Positions 1 through 54,075 of a stretch of DNA of 54,075 nucleotides are shown here, piece by piece. Both the position numbers and the translations under genes were made by a program. Under the pieces are notes generated by a model that saw nothing but the letters and a program-made list of their open reading frames with translations, ran no database searches and was not told the origin of the DNA. Source of the stretch: a virus (lineage: Duplodnaviria; Caudoviricetes); the IMG/VR virus record IMGVR_UViG_3300011114_000387, positions 1 to 54,075 of that record; one strand, given 5' to 3'. Every line of letters begins with the position of its first letter. The first letter of the stretch is position 1.

Positions 1-200
1 GGCCAGCACCGGCACGACTTTGTATGTGTAACTGAAGAACGGCAACGCAAAGTCACGGGCCAAACGGGCGCCCGTGGGCAGGTCGTCGTAGGTAAAAATA
101 AATTGCTGCGAATAGTCGACCGCGTCGTCAATATCTAAACCACGTTTACGGGCATCGCGATAAATCAAATAGCGGAAGAACAAATCCTCAGCTTCGTATG
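1..200. repeat. Terminal direct repeat (copy 1); circular-assembly overlap
   Basis: 1-200 equals 53876-54075 except position 74 (G) vs 53949 (T); falls mid-gene and is exactly 200 bp. Confidence 0.95.
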
Positions 201-3200
201 CTTTGCCAGCGGGCTTGCGCAAGAAGAATGACAGGGCATTGAACACACGGTCTGCTGCCATGCCGGTTTTAGACTCACTCATCTGAGCCATGGCTTTGAG
301 TTGTTCTGGCAACTGGTCCATCAACTCAGAACGGTTAAACGTTCCACCAAACAAGCCGGCTTCTTTGGCTTCGTCGACCATGGCGTCGCCCTTGATCAAG
401 TCGCGCACGGCGCCGGCGTACTTACCCGCGTCCCAATAGGACACGCCGGCAAAGTGGGCCATCGTCAAGTTAGACAATACGTTGTTGGCGTGCGAGACTG
501 GATTGAGAACGGTCTTGCCCTCTTTCCACATTGACAAACCTTTGAGGTACATCTTGAGCAAATCGTTTTGCATCGAGCTGTCAAAGGTGCTGAGCTGGTC
601 CATCACTTCTTTGGGCACCCACTTACCACCAAGCTTGCCGTAACGGCGAACGTTTGCGGTGTCTTCAATTGTGGTTGAAGGGACTTTTACATAGCCCGGC
701 TGCTCTGTGCGGCTGGCGTAATTGGCTGCTAGGTTTTCGTACAGACGGCCAAGCGCTAGATCGCGCTGTGACTTGTTGTAGCCCATGACAAAACGGAACA
801 TGGCATCGCGGATCTCGCCCATGTCGTCACGTTCGTCGCGTGTGTAGTCACGCCACATTGTCACGGTGTCGCTGGTCAAGGGGTCGAACGTGGCATCACG
901 AACTTCCCAGCCTAAGTCAAGCCAGTCTTGCACGTCAGCCACCGGCACGTTCTCAAACATACCGCGAGCCTTAAGACTGTTGCCAGTGATCCCCTGCATT
1001 GTGCGGGTGCGGCCCATCAAACTCTTGGCCGCTTTCATCCATGCTTTTGTTTCGTCGCCAATCTTGGACTCGTAGAAACGCGGCAAGTATTTGCCGTCCC
1101 AGCGACCAGCAGCTTCTGGTGTCAACATGCCAAGGCGTACCAGTTCTGCGGTCTGCTCAGACATGATTGATTGCATTGAGGCGGCCAGTTCCAGCACTCG
1201 CTTGGGCGGCTTGACGCCGCGTTTAAGTTCGCCTTCAATGACATCGCTGATCATCTGGCGCTCTTGCTCTGGCAGGTCTTTAAGTTTTTCGGCTACGTTG
1301 ACCGTAAGGTCTTGAGCCTTTTCAACCTCAGTCTTCATTTTGCGCAGCGCCCGGCTAAGCTCTGGGCTGACTGGCTTCATGCCGATTATGTCGAGAACAT
1401 TGTTGGCCACATCGGCCACAGCCCGATAGGCCTTGGCTCCTGCGCCGAAGCGGAAGCGGCCAGTCTCATCACGGCTAAGAATCCAACCCTCGGTCTGACG
1501 GTTGCTGAACATCATGTCAGCCGGGTTTTCTTGGCGCCACTGAGAAGCGGCTAGGACAAAGGCGTCAAAGTCTTTGTCGCCAAACTCGTCGATTGTTTTG
1601 TAGCCAGCCTCTTCGGCCTTCTGTTGCAGAAAGACTTGTTGTTGCTTGGCGTCTTCGGAAAGCTCGCGCTGCTTTACGGAGTATTGCGGCCCGCTAGGCT
1701 CTTGCCCTCTTTCAGCTTCTCGCTGATTGCGCTGGACATTCTGCTCAGCTTTAGTTTGGCCTCCATCTGCGCGGGACTTAAGCGTGTCGAGGGTTGCGTA
1801 GTAGACGCGTTGGCTGATTCGGCCTGCGTCGAATTCTTCTTCTGTTGCATCTTGGAACTTCTCCAGTAAGCCTTCCCTGCTTACGACGGGGAGATCTGCA
1901 ATATCGATCTCTGCATAGTTGCCTGAACCGCGTGAGTTATCAATCACGTGGATTTTGAATAGTGGGTTATTGCCAAACTCTTGTTGCAGTTGGCGGATAA
2001 CTTGGTTGGAACCAGCGTGCGTTTTAACCAGCGACTCAAGGGTCACTGTTCGTCCGTTCTTTGGGTCCATCGCGCGGTTGAACACGCCGTTTACCAACGC
2101 GTCTACCGGCTCGCGGTATACATGAGCAATTATAACAGACTGCTCTTTGTCGAGCGCGGCCTTGATGTTTCGCTTGGCCTTGTCAATGCTGGACAGCGTG
2201 CCGTCAAAGATTGTGTGCGACTCGTTGAGGATAGGCGCAAGCAAGGCTTCGGCTGAAGATTTACCAGCTCCGCCACCGCCAGACATAAACGTGATCACGC
2301 CGCCCGGCTTGGACTCCTCAAGGCGTTGGTCATACAGCATTTGACTGAATGCGCTGGACGCCTCATGCACTTGCGGTGCAAGGCTGCGGTCTGCGCGGTA
2401 CTCGGGGGACAGGTTGCGGATAAGGTCGACGTCAATCTTCTTACCCTTCTCGGTCCCCTCAATCTCGGAGTACTGCCGAACAGCACCGCCAAAGTCAGAC
2501 AAGATAAGCTGCTCAAGTTTGGCATTGATGTCGTTGGCCCCGCGAGGACTAAAAGCGATTGGCGCACCGGTGATGTCTTTGCCATCTTCGCTAAACGTAG
2601 CGTTCTTGGCCAACACCAGAGGGCCGATCTGAATTACCTCATCAGCCTTGAGCACAGGCTGCATGGTGTCACGGTCGTAGAAGTAGCTGTGTCGGAATGG
2701 GTCCATACCGACCTGTGTCCAAGCCGGGTCTTTGATAGCGGCATCAGCCCGAACCTTTGCGGCTTGGTTGCTAATGGGTTTCCACTTGCCAAGCATGGTG
2801 GCAATAGTGCCTTTGCTTGTACCCTGTGCAATTTTGGTTGCTGCCTTTTGGTTCATGCCAAAAGTTACATCGGTCATTGCTGCTACGGATTCGTAGCCAA
2901 TGACAGTGCCTGCGTCGTAGGCTGCTTGCACTTCACGGTTGGTGGACTTGGGTGTGTGAATGCTAACCACCCACGAGTCATGCTCTTGATACGAAGGAAT
3001 GTCCAAACGTAGCTGGGCAAAGTCGCCTTTGGTTAAGGTGTCTGATGGCAGGCCGTACTTGGCTGCCTTCTCTAGGCTTTGACCACGGCCATTGGCCAAG
3101 GCATATTTAGCGTCGGCTGGTGTTGTAAGCGCAGGGACTTTTTCGTACGGATAGACCGGGCGAAGGTTGTCGACCATGGCGTTGTATTCGTCTTGGGTAA

Positions 3201-4473
3201 TCTTGCCTTCTTGCAAGTCGGTGACGGCTTGCTGCAATTCGTCGGTGCGCTTAAAGCGATCAGAGCTGACATTGGATACGCGGCTTGCTGCTGCGTTCTT
3301 TTGTTCGCGGCGGCTAAGGCTAGGCGCAATTACTTTACGGGCTACAATGCCAAGGCCAACATCAAGCTCGGTTGCATATCGAACTGGGTTTTCTACGGGG
3401 TATAAATATTTAACGCCGCCCGGGGCAATGTCAAACTTGGAATCTTTGGGCACCAAAGTTTGATCTCGATATTGATCAAATTGTTTTTGAGTAGTTACTT
3501 TTATAGGCTCGCCAATTGTTACCGCGCCAATTGCTTTAGCAGGGCCGTCGCCAGTTCTAACAATAGCAACTCGTTTTCCTACATAAGGGCGGAGCGAATC
3601 CGAAGCCCTAGTTTCTAAAGTTTTTTGGCCGTCAACAATTTTATCTGCGTATTGATTTTCACCATCTTGATTGACGTTAATCCCAGTGCTTTCAGTTTGT
3701 TCGCGGCGGCTAAGGCTTATGCCTGCGCCAGCAAACGCGTCACGCAGCGCTTTGGCCCCGTCCTCGGTGCCAATGCGATCGAAGTTGCCCTTAAGCGCAG
3801 CCGCTTGTTCATCGGTCATAGGACCTTTGCTCCAAGGTGCTGCGTCTTCTTGCTCCCTTTCAATGGCTGCGGCCGCTTTGCGCACATCGGCCAAAGGAAC
3901 TGTGGCAAGAAGGTCGGCCTCTGTGCCCTCAGTGAATGAGTACCAGTAACCGCCGTAGCGCGCAGGTTGACGACCGGCTTTTGTAACAGCGCCGCCCCCT
4001 ACGGGTTTACCCGCACGCAGCAAGCTGTATTCACCAAAGCCGCCTTCAGGCACTTTGACTTTGTACACGTAGATGGTGTCTGAGTTAACGCCCTCTGATC
4101 CCGCGCCGGTCTCATCATCGTCGATCATAGAGATGTAGCTGGCCAAGCCTTCGACGCTGGCGGCGTTGGTATTTACGAGGCCTTCCATGTTGGCCAAGCG
4201 AATCACGGTAATAGAGTCACCGGGCTTGGCTTCAAAGACATCGGGTTTTTCTGTACGGGGCCAGTCTTTAACCGGCGTTTGTCGGCCGCTAAAGGCTACG
4301 TCAAAAGGAGCGCCCACATCTTCGTCAGCTTTAGGCGCCAGCATTTCTGCTGCACGACTGGGCAGGTATTGTTCAAGCGCGCCTTGAAGAAGAAATTCTT
4401 TAAGTGCGGGTATGCCCTCAACTGTGGTGCTCTTACCGTCAGCACCAGTGAACGTGTATTTACAGGTTGCCAT
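1..4473 (-). CDS. Giant polyvalent internal virion protein B, N-terminal 1491 codons (continues across junction into 53875-52988; total 1786 aa). Domains: unknown, ASCH/PUA, unknown, zeta-toxin-like P-loop kinase, helical region, LPD38-like C-terminus
   Basis: Hand-translated from ATG at 4473 (MATCKYTFTG...) with no stop to base 1, in frame with ORF 52988..54058; motifs GQKTLETR (ASCH) and GGGGAGKS...FDGTL...GRTV...DNS (zeta-like). Confidence 0.9.
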   Translation of the reverse strand, partial: MATCKYTFTGADGKSTTVEGIPALKEFLLQGALEQYLPSRAAEMLAPKADEDVGAPFDVAFSGRQTPVKDWPRTEKPDVFEAKPGDSITVIRLANMEGLVNTNAASVEGLASYISMIDDDETGAGSEGVNSDTIYVYKVKVPEGGFGEYSLLRAGKPVGGGAVTKAGRQPARYGGYWYSFTEGTEADLLATVPLADVRKAAAAIEREQEDAAPWSKGPMTDEQAAALKGNFDRIGTEDGAKALRDAFAGAGISLSRREQTESTGINVNQDGENQYADKIVDGQKTLETRASDSLRPYVGKRVAIVRTGDGPAKAIGAVTIGEPIKVTTQKQFDQYRDQTLVPKDSKFDIAPGGVKYLYPVENPVRYATELDVGLGIVARKVIAPSLSRREQKNAAASRVSNVSSDRFKRTDELQQAVTDLQEGKITQDEYNAMVDNLRPVYPYEKVPALTTPADAKYALANGRGQSLEKAAKYGLPSDTLTKGDFAQLRLDIPSYQEHDSWVVSIHTPKSTNREVQAAYDAGTVIGYESVAAMTDVTFGMNQKAATKIAQGTSKGTIATMLGKWKPISNQAAKVRADAAIKDPAWTQVGMDPFRHSYFYDRDTMQPVLKADEVIQIGPLVLAKNATFSEDGKDITGAPIAFSPRGANDINAKLEQLILSDFGGAVRQYSEIEGTEKGKKIDVDLIRNLSPEYRADRSLAPQVHEASSAFSQMLYDQRLEESKPGGVITFMSGGGGAGKSSAEALLAPILNESHTIFDGTLSSIDKAKRNIKAALDKEQSVIIAHVYREPVDALVNGVFNRAMDPKNGRTVTLESLVKTHAGSNQVIRQLQQEFGNNPLFKIHVIDNSRGSGNYAEIDIADLPVVSREGLLEKFQDATEEEFDAGRISQRVYYATLDTLKSRADGGQTKAEQNVQRNQREAERGQEPSGPQYSVKQRELSEDAKQQQVFLQQKAEEAGYKTIDEFGDKDFDAFVLAASQWRQENPADMMFSNRQTEGWILSRDETGRFRFGAGAKAYRAVADVANNVLDIIGMKPVSPELSRALRKMKTEVEKAQDLTVNVAEKLKDLPEQERQMISDVIEGELKRGVKPPKRVLELAASMQSIMSEQTAELVRLGMLTPEAAGRWDGKYLPRFYESKIGDETKAWMKAAKSLMGRTRTMQGITGNSLKARGMFENVPVADVQDWLDLGWEVRDATFDPLTSDTVTMWRDYTRDERDDMGEIRDAMFRFVMGYNKSQRDLALGRLYENLAANYASRTEQPGYVKVPSTTIEDTANVRRYGKLGGKWVPKEVMDQLSTFDSSMQNDLLKMYLKGLSMWKEGKTVLNPVSHANNVLSNLTMAHFAGVSYWDAGKYAGAVRDLIKGDAMVDEAKEAGLFGGTFNRSELMDQLPEQLKAMAQMSESKTGMAADRVFNALSFFLRKPAGKAYEAEDLFFRYLIYRDARKRGLDIDDAVDYSQQFIFTYDDLPTGARLARDFALPFFSYTYKVVPVLA
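1674..1850 (-). CDS. Candidate nested +1-frame ORF (58 aa, MQQKKNSTQ...RLSPAQMEAKLKLSRMSSAISEKLKEGKSLAGRNTP) at the end of the zeta-like domain
   Basis: GGAG 9 nt before ATG; spans the end of the domain and the R/E/Q/G-rich host linker; stops at the YS linker motif. Confidence 0.45.
   Translation of the reverse strand: MQQKKNSTQAESANASTTQPSTRLSPAQMEAKLKLSRMSSAISEKLKEGKSLAGRNTP
3300..3717. repeat. 22-bp perfect direct repeat TTTGTTCGCGGCGGCTAAGGCT (3300-3321, 3696-3717) flanking an ASCH domain
   Basis: Read directly; 396-nt (132-codon) spacing; each copy encodes SLSRREQ. Confidence 0.9.
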
Positions 4474-4477
4474 GTGG

Positions 4478-4969
4478 TCAGGCTCCCAGCTCCTGATCGA
4501 TCAAGAGCATGCCTGCCTTGTCGCCGTCCACTAACTGGATGCGGGCAAGCAAATCGCCGTACTCGCCAACGCTGGTGCGCTGAAGCTCCAAGAACTGCAG
4601 CAGGAACTGCTGAACCACGGGGTCGCTACTTGCTTGGGAGTAGTAGTCTTTGTAATTTTTGTAAAGCTCAAGCTCGGTTTCATAGGCCAATTCCATGGCG
4701 TCAGAAAACGACTTAACCGAGGCGGTCATAGCCTCAATCATGGGGACCTTAGCTACACAGCCAACGTCGTTTTGAAATTGGGCGTGCAGTTGGTAATGGT
4801 CCAACTCGGCTTCGCTTTCTTTTAAAAAGAATTTCATTGCACCAAGATAACCAAGGCGCTGCACCTGATTGGCAATGTGCTTGTACAGGTTTGAGGCGTA
4901 AAGCTCAGCGTGGATTGCGTCGTCTAGCATGCGCTTGAGGTCGGCAGAAATGATCATTGTTGGTGTCAT
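4478..4969 (-). CDS. Ferritin (non-heme, FtnA-like)
   Basis: 163 aa, ELYASNLY / FF..ESEAELDH / AYETE / QFL..FLELQ / LLIDQEL pattern of bacterial ferritins. Confidence 0.85.
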   Translation of the reverse strand: MTPTMIISADLKRMLDDAIHAELYASNLYKHIANQVQRLGYLGAMKFFLKESEAELDHYQLHAQFQNDVGCVAKVPMIEAMTASVKSFSDAMELAYETELELYKNYKDYYSQASSDPVVQQFLLQFLELQRTSVGEYGDLLARIQLVDGDKAGMLLIDQELGA

Positions 4970-4978
4970 GGTAAACCC

Positions 4979-7900
4979 TTATTTGCAATTGATTTCAACT
5001 AAGCCAGCGGTGTCCAGCTCGTCAAGGATGTCGAGGAAATTATCCTGCATGTATTGGATCTGAGCCGCATCTGACCGCCGCGCAATCACAGCCTCCGTGT
5101 TGGCCTTGGCCAATCCGCGCTTTTCTAATCCGGCGAAGATGTCTTTGAGGGAGATGCGGTTTCCGATGAAAGTTTCCCGCTCTTCTCCTTGGATCGGGCC
5201 AGCTGGCCCGCTCGGCTGGCCAGCCTGCTTATTTGTTCCCGCGACCGACTCGCCAGCCACTTGTCGTGTTGGTCTTGGTCCAGATTCGGCTGCTGTGCTG
5301 ATTCGTTTTCCATCAAAACCTTCTTTCGTAAGTAGTAATTCTGCCGCACCTGCGTAGTCTTGGCTAGTCACTTGCAGATCAACGCCCAGCTTTTTGTACA
5401 GCTCTTGTTCTGGATACCAGATCAAAGCCTGCAAAGCGGCCGGGGGTACGCGCTTGCCGGTTTGCTCTTCAACCAAAGTCACCAACTGACGGGTTACGTC
5501 ACGTAGACGCTGGCGTTCACCGCCGCTAGAGGGGGAGTCGGTAGGCTTGTCAGCCGATTTAATAATCCCGTTAGACGCACCTACCAAAGCGGTTTTAACG
5601 CGGGCGCCTGAGTCAAACGCAGCCCGCTCTTTGATAAATTGCCGGTTGTGTAGGCTGTATATTTTACGCGCCAAAGCAATTGCGCCCTCGTCGGTTTGTT
5701 GCGCAGCGGCAACATCTTCCGGCTTAAAGTCTGCGGCATAAAGGCCCCGGCTTGAATCGCCGGTCTCAGCCAAAGCGGCGCGCAGCTTGGCCACTTGCTT
5801 GGGAAACAGGACTGGGTCAAACGCTGGCAGCGTACCGCTAAGGCGGCCGATGGTGCGCATGAACCACATGTCCATGGTAATTGGTTCGAAGTTGCCGGTG
5901 AGATTACTGTAAAAGCCGAAGCCAATCTTGGGGCCAAAGATGGCCGAGCCAAGCATCTTCTCATCCATCGACTCAGAGCCAATTGGAAAACCAATAGATT
6001 CCAGCTCACGTTTGGTGAACTCAGTTTGCAAAAAGCGGCGCAGAAGATCCGGCCCCATATCGGCCATCACATCGTTGGCCAATGCAAAGTTCTTAGCCAT
6101 GGCCGGCGCAGATTTGCCTTTGCCGACTTCAGGGAATTTGCCTGTTGCGCGGAAGGCTTCGTATTGACTAGACGCGTAAGTCAGGTTGGCTTCCACGTTC
6201 ATTGTCTGAGAGGCGATGGCAACGGCCATCAAGAAAGCATTGCGTGCGTTCGGGTCCGTGTCCAACTCTGGGTATTTGACAGCCATGATGCGTAGCGTTT
6301 TAGCTACGGTCTCGTCGTACCATTCAACGGCATTGCCGGCGCTGCGGATTGCGCCAACAGCTTCAGCTGCCAACATGCGCGCCAGTGTGCTGCGGTCCTC
6401 GTCTTTGTTGATGTCAAGGGTCGGCATGCCTGAATCGCGGTATCGCTGATCCAGCCATTGAATGGTTTCTGGAATGCCGCCAATGTTGGGGGCGCGGAAG
6501 GTTTTGCCTTTCACACCGCCCAACATTAGGGGCAGAGCACTGGCGTTGTACTCTGCTTGGGAAAGACCGAAGGCGTCTGCAACAGAGCGATAAACGCCTG
6601 TGTCTATTTTGCGCCCGCCGGTACTTTCATCTTTCGCGAGTTCGGCTTCGATGGCGGCGCTGGCTTCTTCGCGGATGCGACGAGCCTCTGTCCGTTTTGC
6701 AAGAAGCTCGGGAGACCCTGTTCCCTCTTGACCATAGTCATACTCCTCTTTGGAGGGGAAGGCCATCTGGCCATCCCCGGTTTTTAAAATAAAGTTTTCC
6801 GGGCGATTGCCAAGAACGCTTTCTATTTTTGATGCAAGGTCGTCCATACTAGCAGAAGGAACGGCCAAAACCATCTCTTGCCCAACCGTTGTGTGGCCGC
6901 TGATGTTTTCTGGCGACACCTGCCGCAAGTCTTGATAAACGGCGTCGACTGATTTTTGATCGACCATGTTTTCTGGCAACGTGATCGTGATCAAACCGAT
7001 AGGTGATGAACCTTCAAAAGGTTTGGAATCCAAAACCATCATGCTGTCTTGAGCTAAACCAAACCCGCCTAACCGAGCAACATCCATGAGCTGCTGAGCA
7101 GATGCCGTGCTTGAAACAAGCGCAGCAAACGAAGGACTTGTTTTTTCAAGATAGCCGCCCAACTGCGGGGTCATCTTAGCCCTAACGCCGGCGAGCTTAA
7201 ACACTTGAGGCATGATCTTCTCAGCAACCCTTTGGCTGATTTCAATCTTGCGTTCAAAAGGCACTGCGTCCCAACGAGCGGTAAGCTCGGTATTGTTAGG
7301 ATCGGGGGCGACCTCAAACATAACCCTAGCGGGTGCTGTTTTCTTGCTGAACCTGACGTCACTGCCGATGCGTTCCAACTCTACGTTGGCTGCGTCGCGT
7401 GAAGTGGCGGGGATCTCCAGATTGCCAGCAGCAACGCGAGCACCCGGTACACGGGAAGCCTTGATGGCGGCCAACTCTTTGGAAAGAAGCCCCTTCTTCA
7501 GCGTTGTGGGTTCGGCTGGTGTAGGGGCTGGGGCACCGGCCACGCGACCCAAAGATCTTACGGGTACGGCAGAGTGGCGCGGGCCCAGCAACACGACGGC
7601 TGACTGGTTGTTCCCAAAGGGGGCCAGATAGCCGTCAAATCCGGCGTTGATTACAGCTGACTCAAAGGCATTGAAGCTGCCCTTTGGTGGAATCAGTTTT
7701 GTTTCGGGGTCGTAGATGTTGTTGAGCTTGGCTTCGTGGGCGATACCTCCGACTCCTGCTTCTGGTCTGACGCCGGAGCCTTGGTCAACATAGAAATAAA
7801 CGCGGTTTTTGAGGCGAGGATCTGGGCTACTGTCCAGCCGATCGCGCTCTGCACCTTTGAGGCCAGTCCCATAATAAGCTCCATTTAACGAGGTACGAGG

Positions 7901-10852
7901 TTGGGTTGAGAAGTGTTGGGCAACGACGGAGACCGCGCCTTGGCGGGCTGTTCCGTACTCTGGGGCTTGACCGCCCCCATCTCCACCAGCGAGTTGTCGA
8001 TTTGACGCTGCAAGTTGCGATATTCCTTGAGTTCCTGTGGTGTCTGCATTTAGGGTTCCTTTGCTGTACGCAATAAGCGCATCTCGAGCAATCACTTTTG
8101 CTTTGCTCAGATCTCGAATGTAAGTGTCAACCAAGGCCGATTCTTTTTGGCCTTGAGTTGGTGTGCCTTTAAGCACGCTCAGCATATTGTCAACGATGCC
8201 AAGCCACTTGTCGACAAAACCCTTGAATCCTTTGGGATCTGTAGCAGCAAGGTCTTTCCAGAATTCTTTGTCGGTGGACCTGTTGCCCAAGAAGTCGGCG
8301 ACCATTTCAGAGCGGGTAGTTGGGGACGCCATCAAGTCTTGAATGCGTTGCTCTTTTGCAACAGGATCTGTGATGCCGGCCAGCTCTTCCGCGTTCAAGA
8401 ACTTTACAAGGTAAGAGCGCTTGCCGTCTTCGGTCATGTCATCAAAGACCGTGTTCACACTGGCAACGTACTGCTGAGCAGGTGTGTCAACCAAACCCTG
8501 TCTGGCTTCGAGCTTAGCAATTTGCTCAACCGTGTGATGGAATTCGTGAATGCTGGTGCGAGCAACGTTGACGTCCACGTTGGCCGTGTTTACGAAAGCG
8601 GCGCCGCCAATGGCAACGCCGTTCAGCGCGTTGGGCCGTGGGTCTATGTAGGCGTAAAGCTTGCCGCCAAATTGGCTGTTGAGAGCTTCGCCAATTTGAT
8701 TGACTGCGCTATCCAGCTCGGCTGGGGCAGCGTTAAAAACCGCTGGGGTTTCTACACCGTTGGAAGTAGCCCACCGGTCGATAGCAACTTGTGCAATTGC
8801 TCTCGCTCCAGCGGCGGCAGACTCTCCTCCCACTGGCGCAATTGCGGTACTAGGCACTTGCGACTCTGGAAGGGCAAGGGTTTTGTCGGCAATGATGCCT
8901 GCGTTTTGGTTGGTTGGTGCATTAGCCAATGGTACGCTAGGAGCGGTTTCAAGTCCAGTGGCTAGGGTAGTATCAGCCACTTCGTTTTGACGCGCTGTAA
9001 GCTCAACTGATGCGCTACGGCGGGTAATTGCTGGGATGGTTTCGTCGCCTGCAATTGTTGTCAGTTGATCGTCTGTCAAGCTGGTAACAGGTTGGCCTTG
9101 GATCTTTTGTGGACGAGGTGGCGTCAAACGCAACTTGTCCAAACCAAACTGTTTTTCGGTAGCAACATCTGGTTGAAGGGGCGCGTTGGCATCAAACGTT
9201 GGTTCGCCCGTTGGCGGCAACGGAGGCAAAGCCAAGCCCGTTAAAGAGGGCTCAATTGCGCGAGGCAACGGGGGTAAGGCCAGATTTGTTAAAGTGGGTT
9301 CAATTTGGCCGGGCAAATTAAGCGGCTGCAAATTGATTGGGGGCAAGTTGACCGTTGGGATACCACCAGCCAACTCAGCTGCTGCCGTTGCTGCGCTGCT
9401 TGCGTCTGTGGCGGTAAAGATCGTGCTGGTATCGACCGGCTCGACGTTGATTTTGCCAATGTTTAGATTGGTTGGCGCGTTGCTAAAAGGACTCAGCTGC
9501 TGGCGGGCTAACTCATCTATTCCAGTAAACTGGGTGTTGGCCACGTTTTCATTGATGGCTTGCGCAATTTGATTTTGAGGCTCGTAGCGGCCGGTCAAAA
9601 TACCGGCTGTTTGTGGGGAGGAAATAAGGCCGCCGCTAACCGCGCCAACAATGGCTGCGTCTTTCAAACCCTTAGTCAGCTCGATGTCCTTGCCTTGGAA
9701 ATACTTGTCCAAAACATTGCCGCCAAATTGAGCAGCTGTTTCTTCAATGGCATTAGTCACGCTAACAATAGTCTGTTGGCCGCCGGCTTGCAAAAGTCTT
9801 TGACCGGCAACGGCCAAAACGGAACTTTGCTTAAGCGGCGATAAGCCTTTAAGCGCATCGCCAATTTTGTCAAAGGCTTTTAATGGCAGCATTTCGGTGC
9901 CAACTTCAACCAATCCTTTAGCCGCAGCAATCATTGCTGGGTCACCTTGGACATAGCTTTGGCCAGCTGAAGTGGCGCCCATAGAAGGCAACAAAACCGC
10001 ACGTAACGGCGGCGCAAACATGGCAGCCATTGACATGCCGGTTGATTGCAAATTAGCTGCAAGTTTGACGCCGAGCCACTTGCCAAATTCTTCTCTGGCA
10101 ATAGCGCCGTCCGATGAACGGCTGTTAATCTTTGGCATGTACTCAGCCGCTGTCTTTGTCAAATACTCAGTACCAAACATCTGGCCAACTTTAGGCAGTG
10201 GTTGCATGCCAGCAGCCTGAAGCAAAGGATTAACTGTAAAGTCGTTAAACAGTTGGGCGGCAACGGTCGGAGCATTGATTGTTCCTGCTAGGCTTGACGC
10301 CATGCCAGCTTGAAGAGCACCGGTCAGTGGGTTCTCTTCGCCAAAACGTTGACGACGCAAAGTCTCGGAGTTGCTTTCAAAGGTTTCGGCTTCTTTAGCC
10401 TTATCAACCAAATCAAAAAAGCTGGTTTCTTTAGCCTGCTCACGGGCCTTGGCCACGGTCAACACCGGACCCGGTTCGATCGGGATCATGCCGCGTCGCA
10501 TCTCGTCGGCCTTGGCCACGGTCTGCAAACTAACAGGACCAGCGCCGTAGCTCAAGCGTTTGTTAAGGTCGGCTTGCCGCTCTTCAACCGTGGGCTGATA
10601 GGTCTCCATCACGCTCTTGTAAGGCGTAAACTTTTCAGCAAGGGCAGCGGGGATGTTGGAAACAGTACCTTTGACCGTCTCAAACGCGCGTGAGATCAGG
10701 CCTTGGGGTTCAGGCGGTGGGGGCTCGGGCGCTTTGTAGCGCGCGGCCAAACGTGCGGCATCATCCCCGGTATCACGAACTTCAAAATCTTCGATTGGCC
10801 TAAACGTTAGGCCGCTATCTTTTTCAAAGTCTGAAAGCGGAATAAAGCGCAT
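4979..10852 (-). CDS. Giant polyvalent internal virion protein A (1957 aa): HExxH metallopeptidase, ADP-ribosyltransferase-like, possible SAM-lyase-like and HhH DNA-glycosylase-like domains
   Basis: ORF track; HEFHH...EMVADF; QHFS...VYFY...AGFDGY; VARLGGFGLAQDSMMV; WYD...GPKIG..FY.NL...TMDMWFMR...QALIW. Confidence 0.85.
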   Translation of the reverse strand: MRFIPLSDFEKDSGLTFRPIEDFEVRDTGDDAARLAARYKAPEPPPPEPQGLISRAFETVKGTVSNIPAALAEKFTPYKSVMETYQPTVEERQADLNKRLSYGAGPVSLQTVAKADEMRRGMIPIEPGPVLTVAKAREQAKETSFFDLVDKAKEAETFESNSETLRRQRFGEENPLTGALQAGMASSLAGTINAPTVAAQLFNDFTVNPLLQAAGMQPLPKVGQMFGTEYLTKTAAEYMPKINSRSSDGAIAREEFGKWLGVKLAANLQSTGMSMAAMFAPPLRAVLLPSMGATSAGQSYVQGDPAMIAAAKGLVEVGTEMLPLKAFDKIGDALKGLSPLKQSSVLAVAGQRLLQAGGQQTIVSVTNAIEETAAQFGGNVLDKYFQGKDIELTKGLKDAAIVGAVSGGLISSPQTAGILTGRYEPQNQIAQAINENVANTQFTGIDELARQQLSPFSNAPTNLNIGKINVEPVDTSTIFTATDASSAATAAAELAGGIPTVNLPPINLQPLNLPGQIEPTLTNLALPPLPRAIEPSLTGLALPPLPPTGEPTFDANAPLQPDVATEKQFGLDKLRLTPPRPQKIQGQPVTSLTDDQLTTIAGDETIPAITRRSASVELTARQNEVADTTLATGLETAPSVPLANAPTNQNAGIIADKTLALPESQVPSTAIAPVGGESAAAGARAIAQVAIDRWATSNGVETPAVFNAAPAELDSAVNQIGEALNSQFGGKLYAYIDPRPNALNGVAIGGAAFVNTANVDVNVARTSIHEFHHTVEQIAKLEARQGLVDTPAQQYVASVNTVFDDMTEDGKRSYLVKFLNAEELAGITDPVAKEQRIQDLMASPTTRSEMVADFLGNRSTDKEFWKDLAATDPKGFKGFVDKWLGIVDNMLSVLKGTPTQGQKESALVDTYIRDLSKAKVIARDALIAYSKGTLNADTTGTQGISQLAASNRQLAGGDGGGQAPEYGTARQGAVSVVAQHFSTQPRTSLNGAYYGTGLKGAERDRLDSSPDPRLKNRVYFYVDQGSGVRPEAGVGGIAHEAKLNNIYDPETKLIPPKGSFNAFESAVINAGFDGYLAPFGNNQSAVVLLGPRHSAVPVRSLGRVAGAPAPTPAEPTTLKKGLLSKELAAIKASRVPGARVAAGNLEIPATSRDAANVELERIGSDVRFSKKTAPARVMFEVAPDPNNTELTARWDAVPFERKIEISQRVAEKIMPQVFKLAGVRAKMTPQLGGYLEKTSPSFAALVSSTASAQQLMDVARLGGFGLAQDSMMVLDSKPFEGSSPIGLITITLPENMVDQKSVDAVYQDLRQVSPENISGHTTVGQEMVLAVPSASMDDLASKIESVLGNRPENFILKTGDGQMAFPSKEEYDYGQEGTGSPELLAKRTEARRIREEASAAIEAELAKDESTGGRKIDTGVYRSVADAFGLSQAEYNASALPLMLGGVKGKTFRAPNIGGIPETIQWLDQRYRDSGMPTLDINKDEDRSTLARMLAAEAVGAIRSAGNAVEWYDETVAKTLRIMAVKYPELDTDPNARNAFLMAVAIASQTMNVEANLTYASSQYEAFRATGKFPEVGKGKSAPAMAKNFALANDVMADMGPDLLRRFLQTEFTKRELESIGFPIGSESMDEKMLGSAIFGPKIGFGFYSNLTGNFEPITMDMWFMRTIGRLSGTLPAFDPVLFPKQVAKLRAALAETGDSSRGLYAADFKPEDVAAAQQTDEGAIALARKIYSLHNRQFIKERAAFDSGARVKTALVGASNGIIKSADKPTDSPSSGGERQRLRDVTRQLVTLVEEQTGKRVPPAALQALIWYPEQELYKKLGVDLQVTSQDYAGAAELLLTKEGFDGKRISTAAESGPRPTRQVAGESVAGTNKQAGQPSGPAGPIQGEERETFIGNRISLKDIFAGLEKRGLAKANTEAVIARRSDAAQIQYMQDNFLDILDELDTAGLVEINCK
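5125..5313 (-). CDS. Candidate nested +1-frame ORF (62 aa, MENESAQQPNLDQDQHDKWLASRSREQISRLASRAGQLARSK...) after the glycosylase-like domain
   Basis: AAGAAGG 5 nt before ATG; internal start of track ORF 5125..5349; lies over a host linker. Confidence 0.45.
   Translation of the reverse strand: MENESAQQPNLDQDQHDKWLASRSREQISRLASRAGQLARSKEKSGKLSSETASPSKTSSPD
6604..6735 (-). CDS. Candidate nested +1-frame ORF (43 aa, MVKREQGLPSFLQNGQRLVASAKK...)
   Basis: AAAGAGGAG 7 nt before ATG; at the boundary between the SAM-lyase-like and glycosylase-like domains. Confidence 0.35.
   Translation of the reverse strand: MVKREQGLPSFLQNGQRLVASAKKPAPPSKPNSRKMKVPAGAK
7885..8049 (-). CDS. Candidate nested +1-frame ORF (54 aa, MQTPQELKEYRNLQRQIDNSLVEMGAVKPQ...) in the linker between the metallopeptidase and ART-like domains
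   Basis: AAAGGA 7 nt before ATG (same SD as several bona fide genes here); amphipathic-helix-like N-terminus. Confidence 0.5.
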   Translation of the reverse strand: MQTPQELKEYRNLQRQIDNSLVEMGAVKPQSTEQPAKARSPSLPNTSQPNLVPR

Positions 10853-52807: not shown

Positions 52808-53028
52808 AGATATGGACCGAAGACTTTGTGTTGGCCAATCCAAAACTAGCAGCCGATGCAATTGGCTGTCTTATTGAATTGGCCACTGACACACGCAACG
52901 ATACACTAGATGAGATCTCAAAGAAAATAGCCGCCATGCCCGGAGACACGGCGGCTGGCATTGCCCTCTGGGTCAGGGATCAGAAAACTATTTCCGCTCC
53001 TCACCCTCTACCGTCAGACCAGCCTTGA
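52804..53028 (+). CDS. Hypothetical protein, convergent with giant B
   Basis: ATGA overlap. Confidence 0.6.
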   Translation: MKIWTEDFVLANPKLAADAIGCLIELATDTRNDTLDEISKKIAAMPGDTAAGIALWVRDQKTISAPHPLPSDQP

Positions 53029-54075
53029 CGTTCTCGATCTTCTCGCGCTGTCGTTCGCGTTGCTTTTCAGCAGCTTCTTCACCGATAGCGCCTTTTCTTT
53101 CAAGGCGATCAAGCTGACGAATCTCGGCCTCCATGTCCCGGATCAACTTGAGTTGCTGGGACTTGTTGATCTGCTCTGACAAGTCAAGGTCGATCGGTCT
53201 TGCTTTAATGCCCAAGGTTTGCATTGCCGCAAAGCCGGGCTGTACTGGCAGGCCGTCTTTGCCCGTGCCGGTGTAGCCAAGGATCTCTTGGCCAGTCACG
53301 TTAGCCATCACGTTAAGGGCACGATCCCAGTGGTAGTTGCCAATTGCAATTGCTGGGGCAAACTGTTGCCACAACCACTTGCCGCGTTTGGCTGCAGCCT
53401 CTGCGCTGGTGTCGTTCTTGTCGACAATGTCTTTGCCAAAGAACGGGTCTTTGTTCCAGATCATTGCGCCAACAGTGTTGAGCACTGGGTTGCTTGGCGT
53501 GATTGGTTGCAAAAGCGGGACGCCGCCAGCGTTGGCGCTTGCATCTAACAAGTCGCCGCCCGGGAAGATCCGGCTTACGTCCAAAAACACGGGCAGGTTG
53601 GTCACGTCGTCCATGCCAAGGCGGATAGCCTTTGGCGTAGCCAACGTGGCGCTGGCGCCCTTCATCCAAGGCGGCAAGTTCTCACGCTCTTGCTTCTCCA
53701 TGGCGCGTGCGCTATTGCGGAACTCAGGGTCTGTTACGTATCGGCGGATGACGGTCCACCAGTCTTCGTCCTCACCGCCGCCAAGGCTGGCAGCCATGGC
53801 GTACATAAGCGCGTTGACTGTGTAGAGTGCAGCAGCTGGGGCAGCGTATCGCATCGGGTGCTCAAGCGCTGTACGGGCCAGCACCGGCACGACTTTGTAT
53901 GTGTAACTGAAGAACGGCAACGCAAAGTCACGGGCCAAACGGGCGCCCTTGGGCAGGTCGTCGTAGGTAAAAATAAATTGCTGCGAATAGTCGACCGCGT
54001 CGTCAATATCTAAACCACGTTTACGGGCATCGCGATAAATCAAATAGCGGAAGAACAAATCCTCAGCTTCGTATG
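52988..54075 (-). CDS. C-terminal part of giant protein B (LPD38-like domain)
   Basis: In frame with 4473..1; PFFSYTYK, LPPWMK, NKDPFFGKDI. Confidence 0.85.
   Translation of the reverse strand, partial: YEAEDLFFRYLIYRDARKRGLDIDDAVDYSQQFIFTYDDLPKGARLARDFALPFFSYTYKVVPVLARTALEHPMRYAAPAAALYTVNALMYAMAASLGGGEDEDWWTVIRRYVTDPEFRNSARAMEKQERENLPPWMKGASATLATPKAIRLGMDDVTNLPVFLDVSRIFPGGDLLDASANAGGVPLLQPITPSNPVLNTVGAMIWNKDPFFGKDIVDKNDTSAEAAAKRGKWLWQQFAPAIAIGNYHWDRALNVMANVTGQEILGYTGTGKDGLPVQPGFAAMQTLGIKARPIDLDLSEQINKSQQLKLIRDMEAEIRQLDRLERKGAIGEEAAEKQRERQREKIENVKAGLTVEGEERK
53876..54075. repeat. Terminal direct repeat (copy 2)
   Basis: Matches 1-200. Confidence 0.95.

Follow-up and report, generated by a model that had tools for sequence, protein, structure and literature searches.

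The stretch of DNA analysed here (the window) comprises the 54,075 nucleotides (nt) of IMG/VR virus record IMGVR_UViG_3300011114_000387, assigned to the Caudoviricetes. Two giant genes, A and B, are sited at the end of its minus-strand structural block, and nested within them, on the same strand and in the +1 frame, are four small open reading frames (ORFs), m1 to m4. Giant gene A (4979..10852, minus strand), as read from its ORF and translation, encodes a multi-domain protein of 1957 amino acids (aa) and hosts m1, m2 and m3. Giant gene B, which hosts m4, covers positions 1..4473 (minus strand) with its first 1491 aa, crosses the terminal junction and continues at 52988-54073 on the same strand, for a total of approximately 1786 aa. 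As judged from comparison with related loci, the four nested ORFs are very probably genuine, independently initiated protein-coding genes.

Nested ORFs in the giant genes

All of the features described below lie on the minus strand. The m1 ORF (7885..8049; 54 aa) is found in the linker between two segments of giant A referred to as pep and art, m2 (6604..6735; 43 aa) in the linker 3′ of a domain referred to as x, and m3 (5125..5313; 62 aa) in the linker 3′ of a DNA-glycosylase-like domain. The fourth, m4 (1674..1850; 58 aa), starts at the C-terminal edge of a zeta-toxin-like domain in giant B. All four begin with ATG. An initial annotation, made from the letters of the window, had proposed these ORFs, and each of the four was found where it had been placed.

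Each ORF is preceded by a Shine-Dalgarno (SD)-like sequence: AAAGGA (8057..8062), 7 nt upstream of the m1 ATG and present as CAAGGAGA in relatives; AGAGGAG (6743..6749), 7 nt upstream of the m2 ATG; AAGAAGG (5319..5325), 5 nt upstream of the m3 ATG and the weakest of the four; and GGAG (1861..1864), 10 nt upstream of the m4 ATG and present as AAGGAGAA in relatives. The motifs and spacers had been given correctly for m1, m2 and m3, while the m4 spacer is one nucleotide longer than the claimed 9 nt. Two of the four ORFs open further upstream, at ATG 6774 and GTG 5349; the conserved start is in each case the ATG chosen originally. The host frame over the nested ORFs is of low complexity and rich in G/Q/E/R/A/P, a composition in keeping with the R/G/E/Q-rich frame first described.

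Within the single genome, ORFs of this kind are not rare. The +1 frames of giants A and B contain 67 and 53 stops, and the +2 frames 115 and 106. Nine +1-frame ATG-initiated ORFs of at least 43 aa occur in the two giants, against 7.4 expected from synonymous shuffles (P=0.28); with a loose SD motif added, a motif defined post hoc, five are observed and 1.8 expected (P=0.02). The caveat of the initial annotation, that +1 frames of these genes are often open, therefore holds within this genome. One genome alone cannot tell the four ORFs from chance; relatives can. Clustering of +1 peptides does not discriminate, given that off-frame translations of conserved DNA cluster too.

These figures argue for a reading in which the ORFs are chance open frames, or in which the linkers hold a conserved nucleotide element such as a recombination linker, an RNA structure or a pause site: the number of +1 ORFs in the window matches chance expectation, and the +1 frame is generally open, with control ORFs open as well in many homologues. 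The evidence from relatives bears directly on this reading.

Conservation across related loci

Relatives of the giants were collected from IMG/VR at 29-95% identity, with 27 loci for A, 39 for B and 86 in total after later scans. Because several loci share one contig, the counts given here refer to distinct sequences only. In codon-aligned homologues the ATG is kept in 14/17 for m1, 14/14 for m2, 25/25 for m3 and 6/6 for m4, and the conserved part of each nested ORF is free of internal stops in all homologues. The ATG, the SD-like motif, the open frame, the length and the position of the stop are conserved in all four families. In the same alignments, conservation of the +1 peptide equals or, mostly, exceeds that of the host frame over the same columns. 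For m3, +1 identity is 0.54-0.98 (0.74-0.98 in 18 of 24 homologues), compared to 0.39-0.83 in the host frame.

Profile searches of all six frames of the window and loci L001-L066 recovered 22 copies of m1, 23 of m2, 42 of m3 and 12 of m4. All of these are nested at the homologous place, and nearly all terminate exactly at the stop of the ORF. The three loci in which m1 has no aligned ATG (L048, L014 and L016) still contain the m1 peptide in the profile search. In L048 the ATG lies upstream of the aligned column, while in L014, L016 and a further locus, L086, m1 probably starts at GTG.

The SD-like sites pair with the anti-SD sequence at family mean duplex energies of -7.5 (m1), -7.2 (m2), -5.4 (m3) and -7.4 kcal/mol (m4), compared to a mean of -1.8 kcal/mol for 68 background +1-frame ATGs. 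This pairing is comparable to that at real gene starts in the window. As checks on its proposal, the initial annotation had named conservation of the SD and ATG in relatives, and conservation of the +1 peptide together with synonymous constraint in the host frame. The SD and ATG are conserved in every family, and the other two signals were likewise both found, the second as described below.

These same observations bear on the possibility that the +1 sequences are alternative C-terminal tails, reached by programmed ribosomal frameshifting and yielding truncated giants. Same-strand +1 ORFs at domain ends could give such domain-truncated products, and some relatives have 5-55 open +1 codons ahead of the ATG. 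Frameshifting would require neither an ATG nor an SD, yet both are conserved in all families, and in broken giants these peptides are encoded by ORFs of their own. In 7 of 22 m1 hits the start is preceded, directly or after a single codon, by an in-frame stop. The window is among these, with an in-frame TAA immediately 5′ of the m1 ATG, and frameshifting therefore cannot supply m1. On the strength of this stop and of the conserved ATG and SD, a programmed frameshift product was rejected, and we regard it as extremely improbable.

Selection on the two reading frames

The pattern of variation differs between the nested ORFs and their flanks. Averaged over all four families, the third codon position of the host frame is the most variable position in the flanks (0.35-0.58). 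In 10-codon bins in the upstream part of m1-m3 it falls as low as 0.04-0.27, and inside the ORFs the first position of the host frame, which is the wobble position of the +1 frame, becomes the most variable. In an unbiased scan of synonymous variation with windows of 21 codons, m3 occupies ranks 1 and 2 in gene A (observed/expected 0.13 and 0.19), m2 rank 3 (0.36) and m1 rank 5 (0.57). The excess of +1 identity given host identity, evaluated against 2823 control windows of which the highest reaches z = 3.4, corresponds to z = 8.5 for m3, 4.9 for m2, 3.8 for m1 and 2.7 for m4.

The pairwise ratio of nonsynonymous to synonymous differences (pN/pS) in the +1 frame is 0.58 for m1, 0.68 for m2, 0.45 for m3 and 0.68 for m4, compared to 1.02-1.36 in the flanks (1.04-1.06 in those of m1). 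The host-frame ratio is 0.68-0.91 inside the ORFs and 0.12-0.59 in the flanks. The host frame of the linkers is near neutral and is maintained only as an open tether, the purifying selection being placed on the +1 frame.

Phase ratios were compared among 24 +1-ORF clusters of five or more members. The four nested families have ratios of 1.07-1.40 and three further clusters 1.11-2.61; one cluster is undefined. The remaining 16 clusters have ratios of 0.16-0.83, 15 of them within 0.16-0.65. The three additional clusters with ratios of at least 1.1 were taken as further candidates rather than as controls.

Several observations weigh against a coding interpretation, or limit it. No m4 window is among the 12 strongest of gene B in the synonymous scan, and m4 is also the weakest by excess identity, 4% of matched controls reaching its z of 2.7. 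Identity in the +2 frame is raised as well (z of 1.8-4.7), and part of the signal is therefore plain nucleotide conservation, a point in favor of the nucleotide-element reading. Control +1 ORFs are also open in 7/10, 10/12, 24/31 and 27/32 homologues, and three of the 13 pep-m1 junctions (those of L014, L016 and L086) have no ATG. The homologues share ancestry, so that the counts cannot be taken as independent events, nor the z values as probabilities.

Set against chance are the three-base period of the variation, which follows the +1 frame, the sole frame in which pN/pS is below 1; the retention of start, stop and length at 22-28% peptide identity; and the opposite phase pattern of the control +1 ORF clusters. 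A reading as chance frames or as a nucleotide element is already largely refuted, and we assign it a very small likelihood.

Linkage of nested genes to upstream domains

The nested ORFs start 7-17 nt past the end of the upstream-domain alignment, in agreement with the original claim that they begin at or near the end of a globular domain, and stop about 9-12 nt ahead of the next domain. Because the ends of the ORFs abut both domains, linker and nested gene coincide.

In relatives, the pairs pep-m1, x-m2, gly-m3 (gly being the glycosylase-like domain) and zeta-m4 are constant. Giants of the L028 type lack both x and m2, and the giant of L017 has the order gly-m3-x-m2-art and is without both pep and m1. 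This linkage was quantified by counting, among distinct sequences, the domains with a trailing +1 ATG-ORF (35 aa or longer) whose start is no more than 75 nt from the domain end. Such an ORF trails x in 15/15 cases, zeta in 15/15, gly in 28/31 and pep in 10/13. The corresponding controls are 1/23 for art, 2/37 for the segment following m4 and 133/900 for random interior positions. Each nested gene is inherited with the domain immediately upstream, as a single module, and the earlier suggestion that ORF and domain travel as a cassette is borne out by the constant pairs, the joint absence of x and m2 and the different order in L017. Two observations run counter to a simple rule of one immunity gene per domain: the three gly domains that have no trailing ORF, those of L024-L026, are distant (31-32% identity) and without m3, and the ART-like domain as a class is without one.

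The pep segment (8063..8755; A aa 700-930) contains an HExxH motif, seen by eye only, and is followed by m1. Domain x (6749..7465; A aa 1130-1368) is always followed by m2 and has no Pfam match; an ESM-Atlas search gave a lead to clusters of S-adenosylmethionine (S-AdoMet) lyases, with a score of 0.80 that is below the threshold of the tool itself. None of the pep, art, x and gly segments matches Pfam even at an E-value of 5.

The glycosylase-like domain (5324..6595; A aa 1420-1843) is all-alpha, with a fold resembling that of HhH-GPD DNA glycosylases. Its AlphaFold2 (AF2) model has a predicted local distance difference test (pLDDT) score of 83.1. In a wide (exhaustive) VIA search with this model the 22 best rows are all members of the HhH-GPD DNA-glycosylase superfamily (Z 9.2-5.8). 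The best match, 3n0u_A, has a Z of 9.2, a value that is middling for a helical model, with 193 residues aligned at a root-mean-square deviation of 4.5. A Foldseek search of the model against the PDB returned nothing at E≤1e-3. It is thus plausible, at the level of the fold only, that A aa 1420-1843 is glycosylase-like. Among the labels originally given to the domains, "zeta-like" stands on Pfam and on 6epg_B and "glycosylase-like" at the fold level, while "peptidase" and "ART-like" were confirmed by no tool.

The zeta-toxin-like kinase and m4

The zeta-toxin-like kinase domain (1858..2496; B aa 660-872) contains an invariant P-loop, GGGGxGKS. Giant B matches Zeta_toxin (PF06414) at residues 754-846 with 29.4 bits, compared to a curated cut-off of 22.3, and its residues 667-896 match the Zeta_1 toxin chain 6epg_B with an E-value of 8e-9. 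Its other Pfam matches are Phage_L5_gp82 and a weak ASCH.

The m4 gene accompanies all 15 distinct zeta-like domains, and its start, stop and length (58-60 aa) are kept down to 22-28% peptide identity. Zeta-like domains at 50-54% identity are followed at the same site by a 60-aa ORF that was missed by the first m4 profile; this ORF represents a divergent m4 (26% identity; hhalign probability 95.8%, E 6.8e-9). A profile of 17 m4 sequences gave 14 matches at E≤0.001 in a representative library of approximately 1.84 billion proteins. Ten of these 14, all unnamed library entries, are 58-63 aa long and align essentially end to end. A protein scan of genome contigs with m4 gave no match, and m4 has no significant match in Pfam or PHROGs, the comparison made here not extending directly to epsilon antitoxins.

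Co-folding of nested peptides with their domains had been proposed in the initial annotation and was carried out for the m4-zeta pair, with alignments built in this analysis. The pair scored 0.59, and the best of three controls reached 0.01; the pLDDT of the partner was at least 58, and the runs agreed in at least 86% of contacts. In the calibration of the tool, the mark was reached by 58 of 80 solved complexes and by 2 of 110 mismatched pairs; passes at 0.60 or below comprised only 7 of the 80 solved complexes but both of the mismatches. By the tool's own grading, a pass of this kind is more often wrong than right unless the interaction was likely beforehand. The result weakly supports a model in which m4 may contact the zeta-like domain.

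Copies in bacterial islands

A protein search with m3 identified fused m2-m3 ORFs of approximately 94-101 aa on five contigs from metagenomes (L077-L081); no such fusion was found in IMG/VR. L077 contains tilS, an aspartate kinase gene, tRNA-Ser and a P4-type integrase, and L078 encodes a DUF5906 protein. From this gene content (tilS, integrase, DUF5906), L077-L081 are read as elements that would be integrated in bacterial chromosomes. In all five islands only fragments of the giant are left, with in-frame stops at a conserved site, and the glycosylase-like domain is gone. The zeta-like domain of L077 has lost its P-loop half and m4 is kept, one ORF joining the zeta-like remnant, the nested m4 and a MuF_C domain.

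Comparison of the five island copies of the m3 core gave a pN/pS of 0.32 for the m3 frame, compared to 2.06 for the former host frame and 0.92 for the remaining one. The m3 gene is thus under selection independently of the giant. The persistence of m2 and m3 without their domains would fit orphan immunity.

Peptide properties and further nested candidates

The nested peptides are 43-62 aa long and hydrophilic, with a grand average of hydropathy (GRAVY) of -0.8 to -1.4, and mostly basic (isoelectric point 8.2-11.8), with no cysteine, no lipobox and no membrane segment. Most of the modelled m2-m3 fusion is disordered (pLDDT 65.2), and two helices cover the m3 core at pLDDT 80-89. The nested products may accordingly be largely disordered with one or two helices, as predicted by the model for m2/m3 only. 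The peptides and their fused forms have no significant Pfam or PHROGs match, and hhalign comparison of the four families with one another detected no similarity (probabilities 0.1-0.4%).

A possible fifth nested +1 ORF, m0 (8752..8922; 56 aa), ends exactly at the start of pep. L083 and L086 share its C-terminal motif (E about 1e-13), and in L014 and L016 the motif is weakly conserved. The ATG is kept in 3 of 12 homologues only, and in the window there is no SD-like site upstream. Another 63-aa +1 ORF at 7693-7884 of the window begins one base past the m1 stop codon. Its ATG is found in 6 of 30 homologues, its +1 identity is 0.44 compared to 0.69 for the host frame and its phase ratio is 0.43; it behaves like a chance ORF.

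The relatives also harbor nested +1 families that are absent from the window, in the giant ORF of L017 (2341-10149), in L019-L023 and in giants of the L036 type. One of these, of 68 aa with five members, has the strongest phase ratio of all (2.61), and another, of 146 aa with seven members, has a ratio of 1.17. In addition, glycosylase-like domains of 29-33% identity are followed by +1 ATG-ORFs of 71-74 aa with an SD-like site at L031:1471-1692, L060:1466-1684 and L027:4010-4222. Those of L031 and L060 are alike, with an m3-like beginning (by eye only).

The phage genome

The first and last 200 nt of the window (1-200 and 53876-54075) are the same sequence with one mismatch, and the window is therefore a complete genome, circularly permuted or terminally redundant, with a full length of approximately 53.9 kb. 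The minus-strand structural block contains terminase, portal, major head protein, SU10-type adaptor and tail-fibre genes; the phage is of a freshwater type with podovirus-like structural genes.

Giant A has no Pfam and no PHROGs match, and sequence searches of the PDB with it gave nothing meaningful. At the DNA level neither giant has a match among INPHARED phages, and a protein-mode search found distant partial relatives only. The closest named phage is Limnohabitans phage DC33, with 33% identity over part of A. The sole match in a collection of species-representative genomes is L086, a 5.4-kb contig in a metagenome-assembled genome (MAG) labelled Rhodoferax sp., the giant of which has nested m1 and m3. 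Its origin hints at a Comamonadaceae host.

Relation to known systems

Small genes inside larger genes on the same strand are known from the Rz/Rz1 spanins of phage lambda and from the nested genes of phiX174. Rz1 is a lipoprotein that acts with Rz in lysis. The likeness lies in a small +1-frame gene, wholly nested, with its own ribosome-binding site. Unlike Rz1, the products of m1-m4 have no lipobox, cysteine or membrane segment, and unlike both of these phage systems there are four or five nested genes here, each matching the inter-domain linker behind a particular domain.

Polymorphic toxin cassettes reportedly come with immunity genes, and orphan immunity genes are said to occur as well, in an account attributed to Zhang et al. 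in 2012. In both cases the domain and a small gene move together, and copies of the small gene outlive the toxin, as seen in L077-L081. The immunity genes of those cassettes are separate ORFs behind the toxin, whereas here the putative immunity genes overlap the effector in another frame. Similarly, the epsilon/zeta toxin-antitoxin system (6epg_B) places the gene of a small helical protein beside that of a zeta-type P-loop kinase. In contrast to that system, the m4 gene lies inside and after the toxin-coding sequence rather than before it, and the kinase does not stand alone, being one of the domains of a virion protein that exceeds 1700 aa.

By their architecture the giants resemble polyvalent-type virion proteins. 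A zeta-toxin-like kinase is among the domains listed in the description of polyvalent proteins by Iyer et al. (2017; PMC5512222), and the giants likewise appear to string enzyme domains together, with MuF_C found in the island relative L077. In that paper the words "overlapping" and "linker" do not occur and no nested partner genes are described. In bacteria, GndA within gnd is reportedly a same-strand nested small ORF in an alternative frame. Such examples are single cases in housekeeping genes, unlike the repeated architectural rule seen in these phage effectors. No report of small nested genes in the linkers of phage polyvalent or ejection proteins was found in open-access full text. Nested +1 phage genes are already known; the aspect that appears to be new is small genes that fill linkers and shuffle with domains.

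Possible functions of the nested genes

Each nested gene would most likely be translated by internal initiation on the mRNA of the giant, from its own SD-like site and ATG, and its peptide would most likely be a trans-acting partner of the upstream enzyme domain. We consider this overall account, of nested genes linked to modules and probably encoding trans-acting domain partners, to be likely, and favor it. Our leaning is towards an antitoxin-like inhibitor that would silence the domain in the producing cell, and perhaps in cells with orphan copies. An inhibitor is favored because of the module linkage, the perfect association of m4 with zeta together with the epsilon/zeta analogy, and the resemblance of the island copies to orphan immunity genes. 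For a role as partner or inhibitor, the computational results give weak support for m4 only and none for m1-m3, and we propose a domain-neutralising role only tentatively, as well short of probable.

A number of points speak against this role. The four families are mutually dissimilar and match no known family. In L077-L081, the fused m2 and m3 are still under selection although their domains are gone. A doomed infected cell would need protection only from premature damage, and the toxicity of the upstream domains is putative.

It is also possible, at a likelihood not far below even, that the genes are real and their products are not inhibitors. They could be chaperones for folding, packaging or ejection, or could have an unrelated role, for example as a small regulator or an anti-defence peptide that arose by overprinting in linkers. 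Linkage to the upstream domain suits a chaperone equally well; disordered basic peptides are typical of overprinted proteins; the ORFs fill the unconstrained linker exactly, as expected where the host frame is free; and not all putative toxic domains have a trailing ORF, art being the example. A chaperone is difficult to reconcile with the island m3, which is under purifying selection with no domain to chaperone, and four or five independent births tied to enzyme domains call for a common selective reason.

In its fullest form, the inhibitor proposal would hold that the linkers of injected proteins are themselves genes, that each effector domain has a +1 antitoxin-like peptide that is left behind at packaging, that toxin and antidote shuffle together, and that the islands L077-L081 use orphan copies as protection. 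Taken as a whole, this scenario is rather unlikely.

The case for nested genes is directly testable, because host-synonymous knock-outs of the start codons exist. Gene callers drop ORFs nested in longer genes on the same strand, leaving this coding layer invisible in annotation, and here one gene pair conceals four or five conserved small proteins. The targets of the nested peptides would help to show the function of the upstream domains. If the peptides are inhibitors, they would be ready-made specific antagonists of a zeta-type kinase, a DNA-glycosylase-like enzyme and two other domains. The linkers also provide a natural example in which the "main" frame is nearly neutral and the alternative frame is selected. 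The use of a domain and its nested trailing gene as a shuffling unit suggests that effectors may be assembled and exchanged without harm to the producer.

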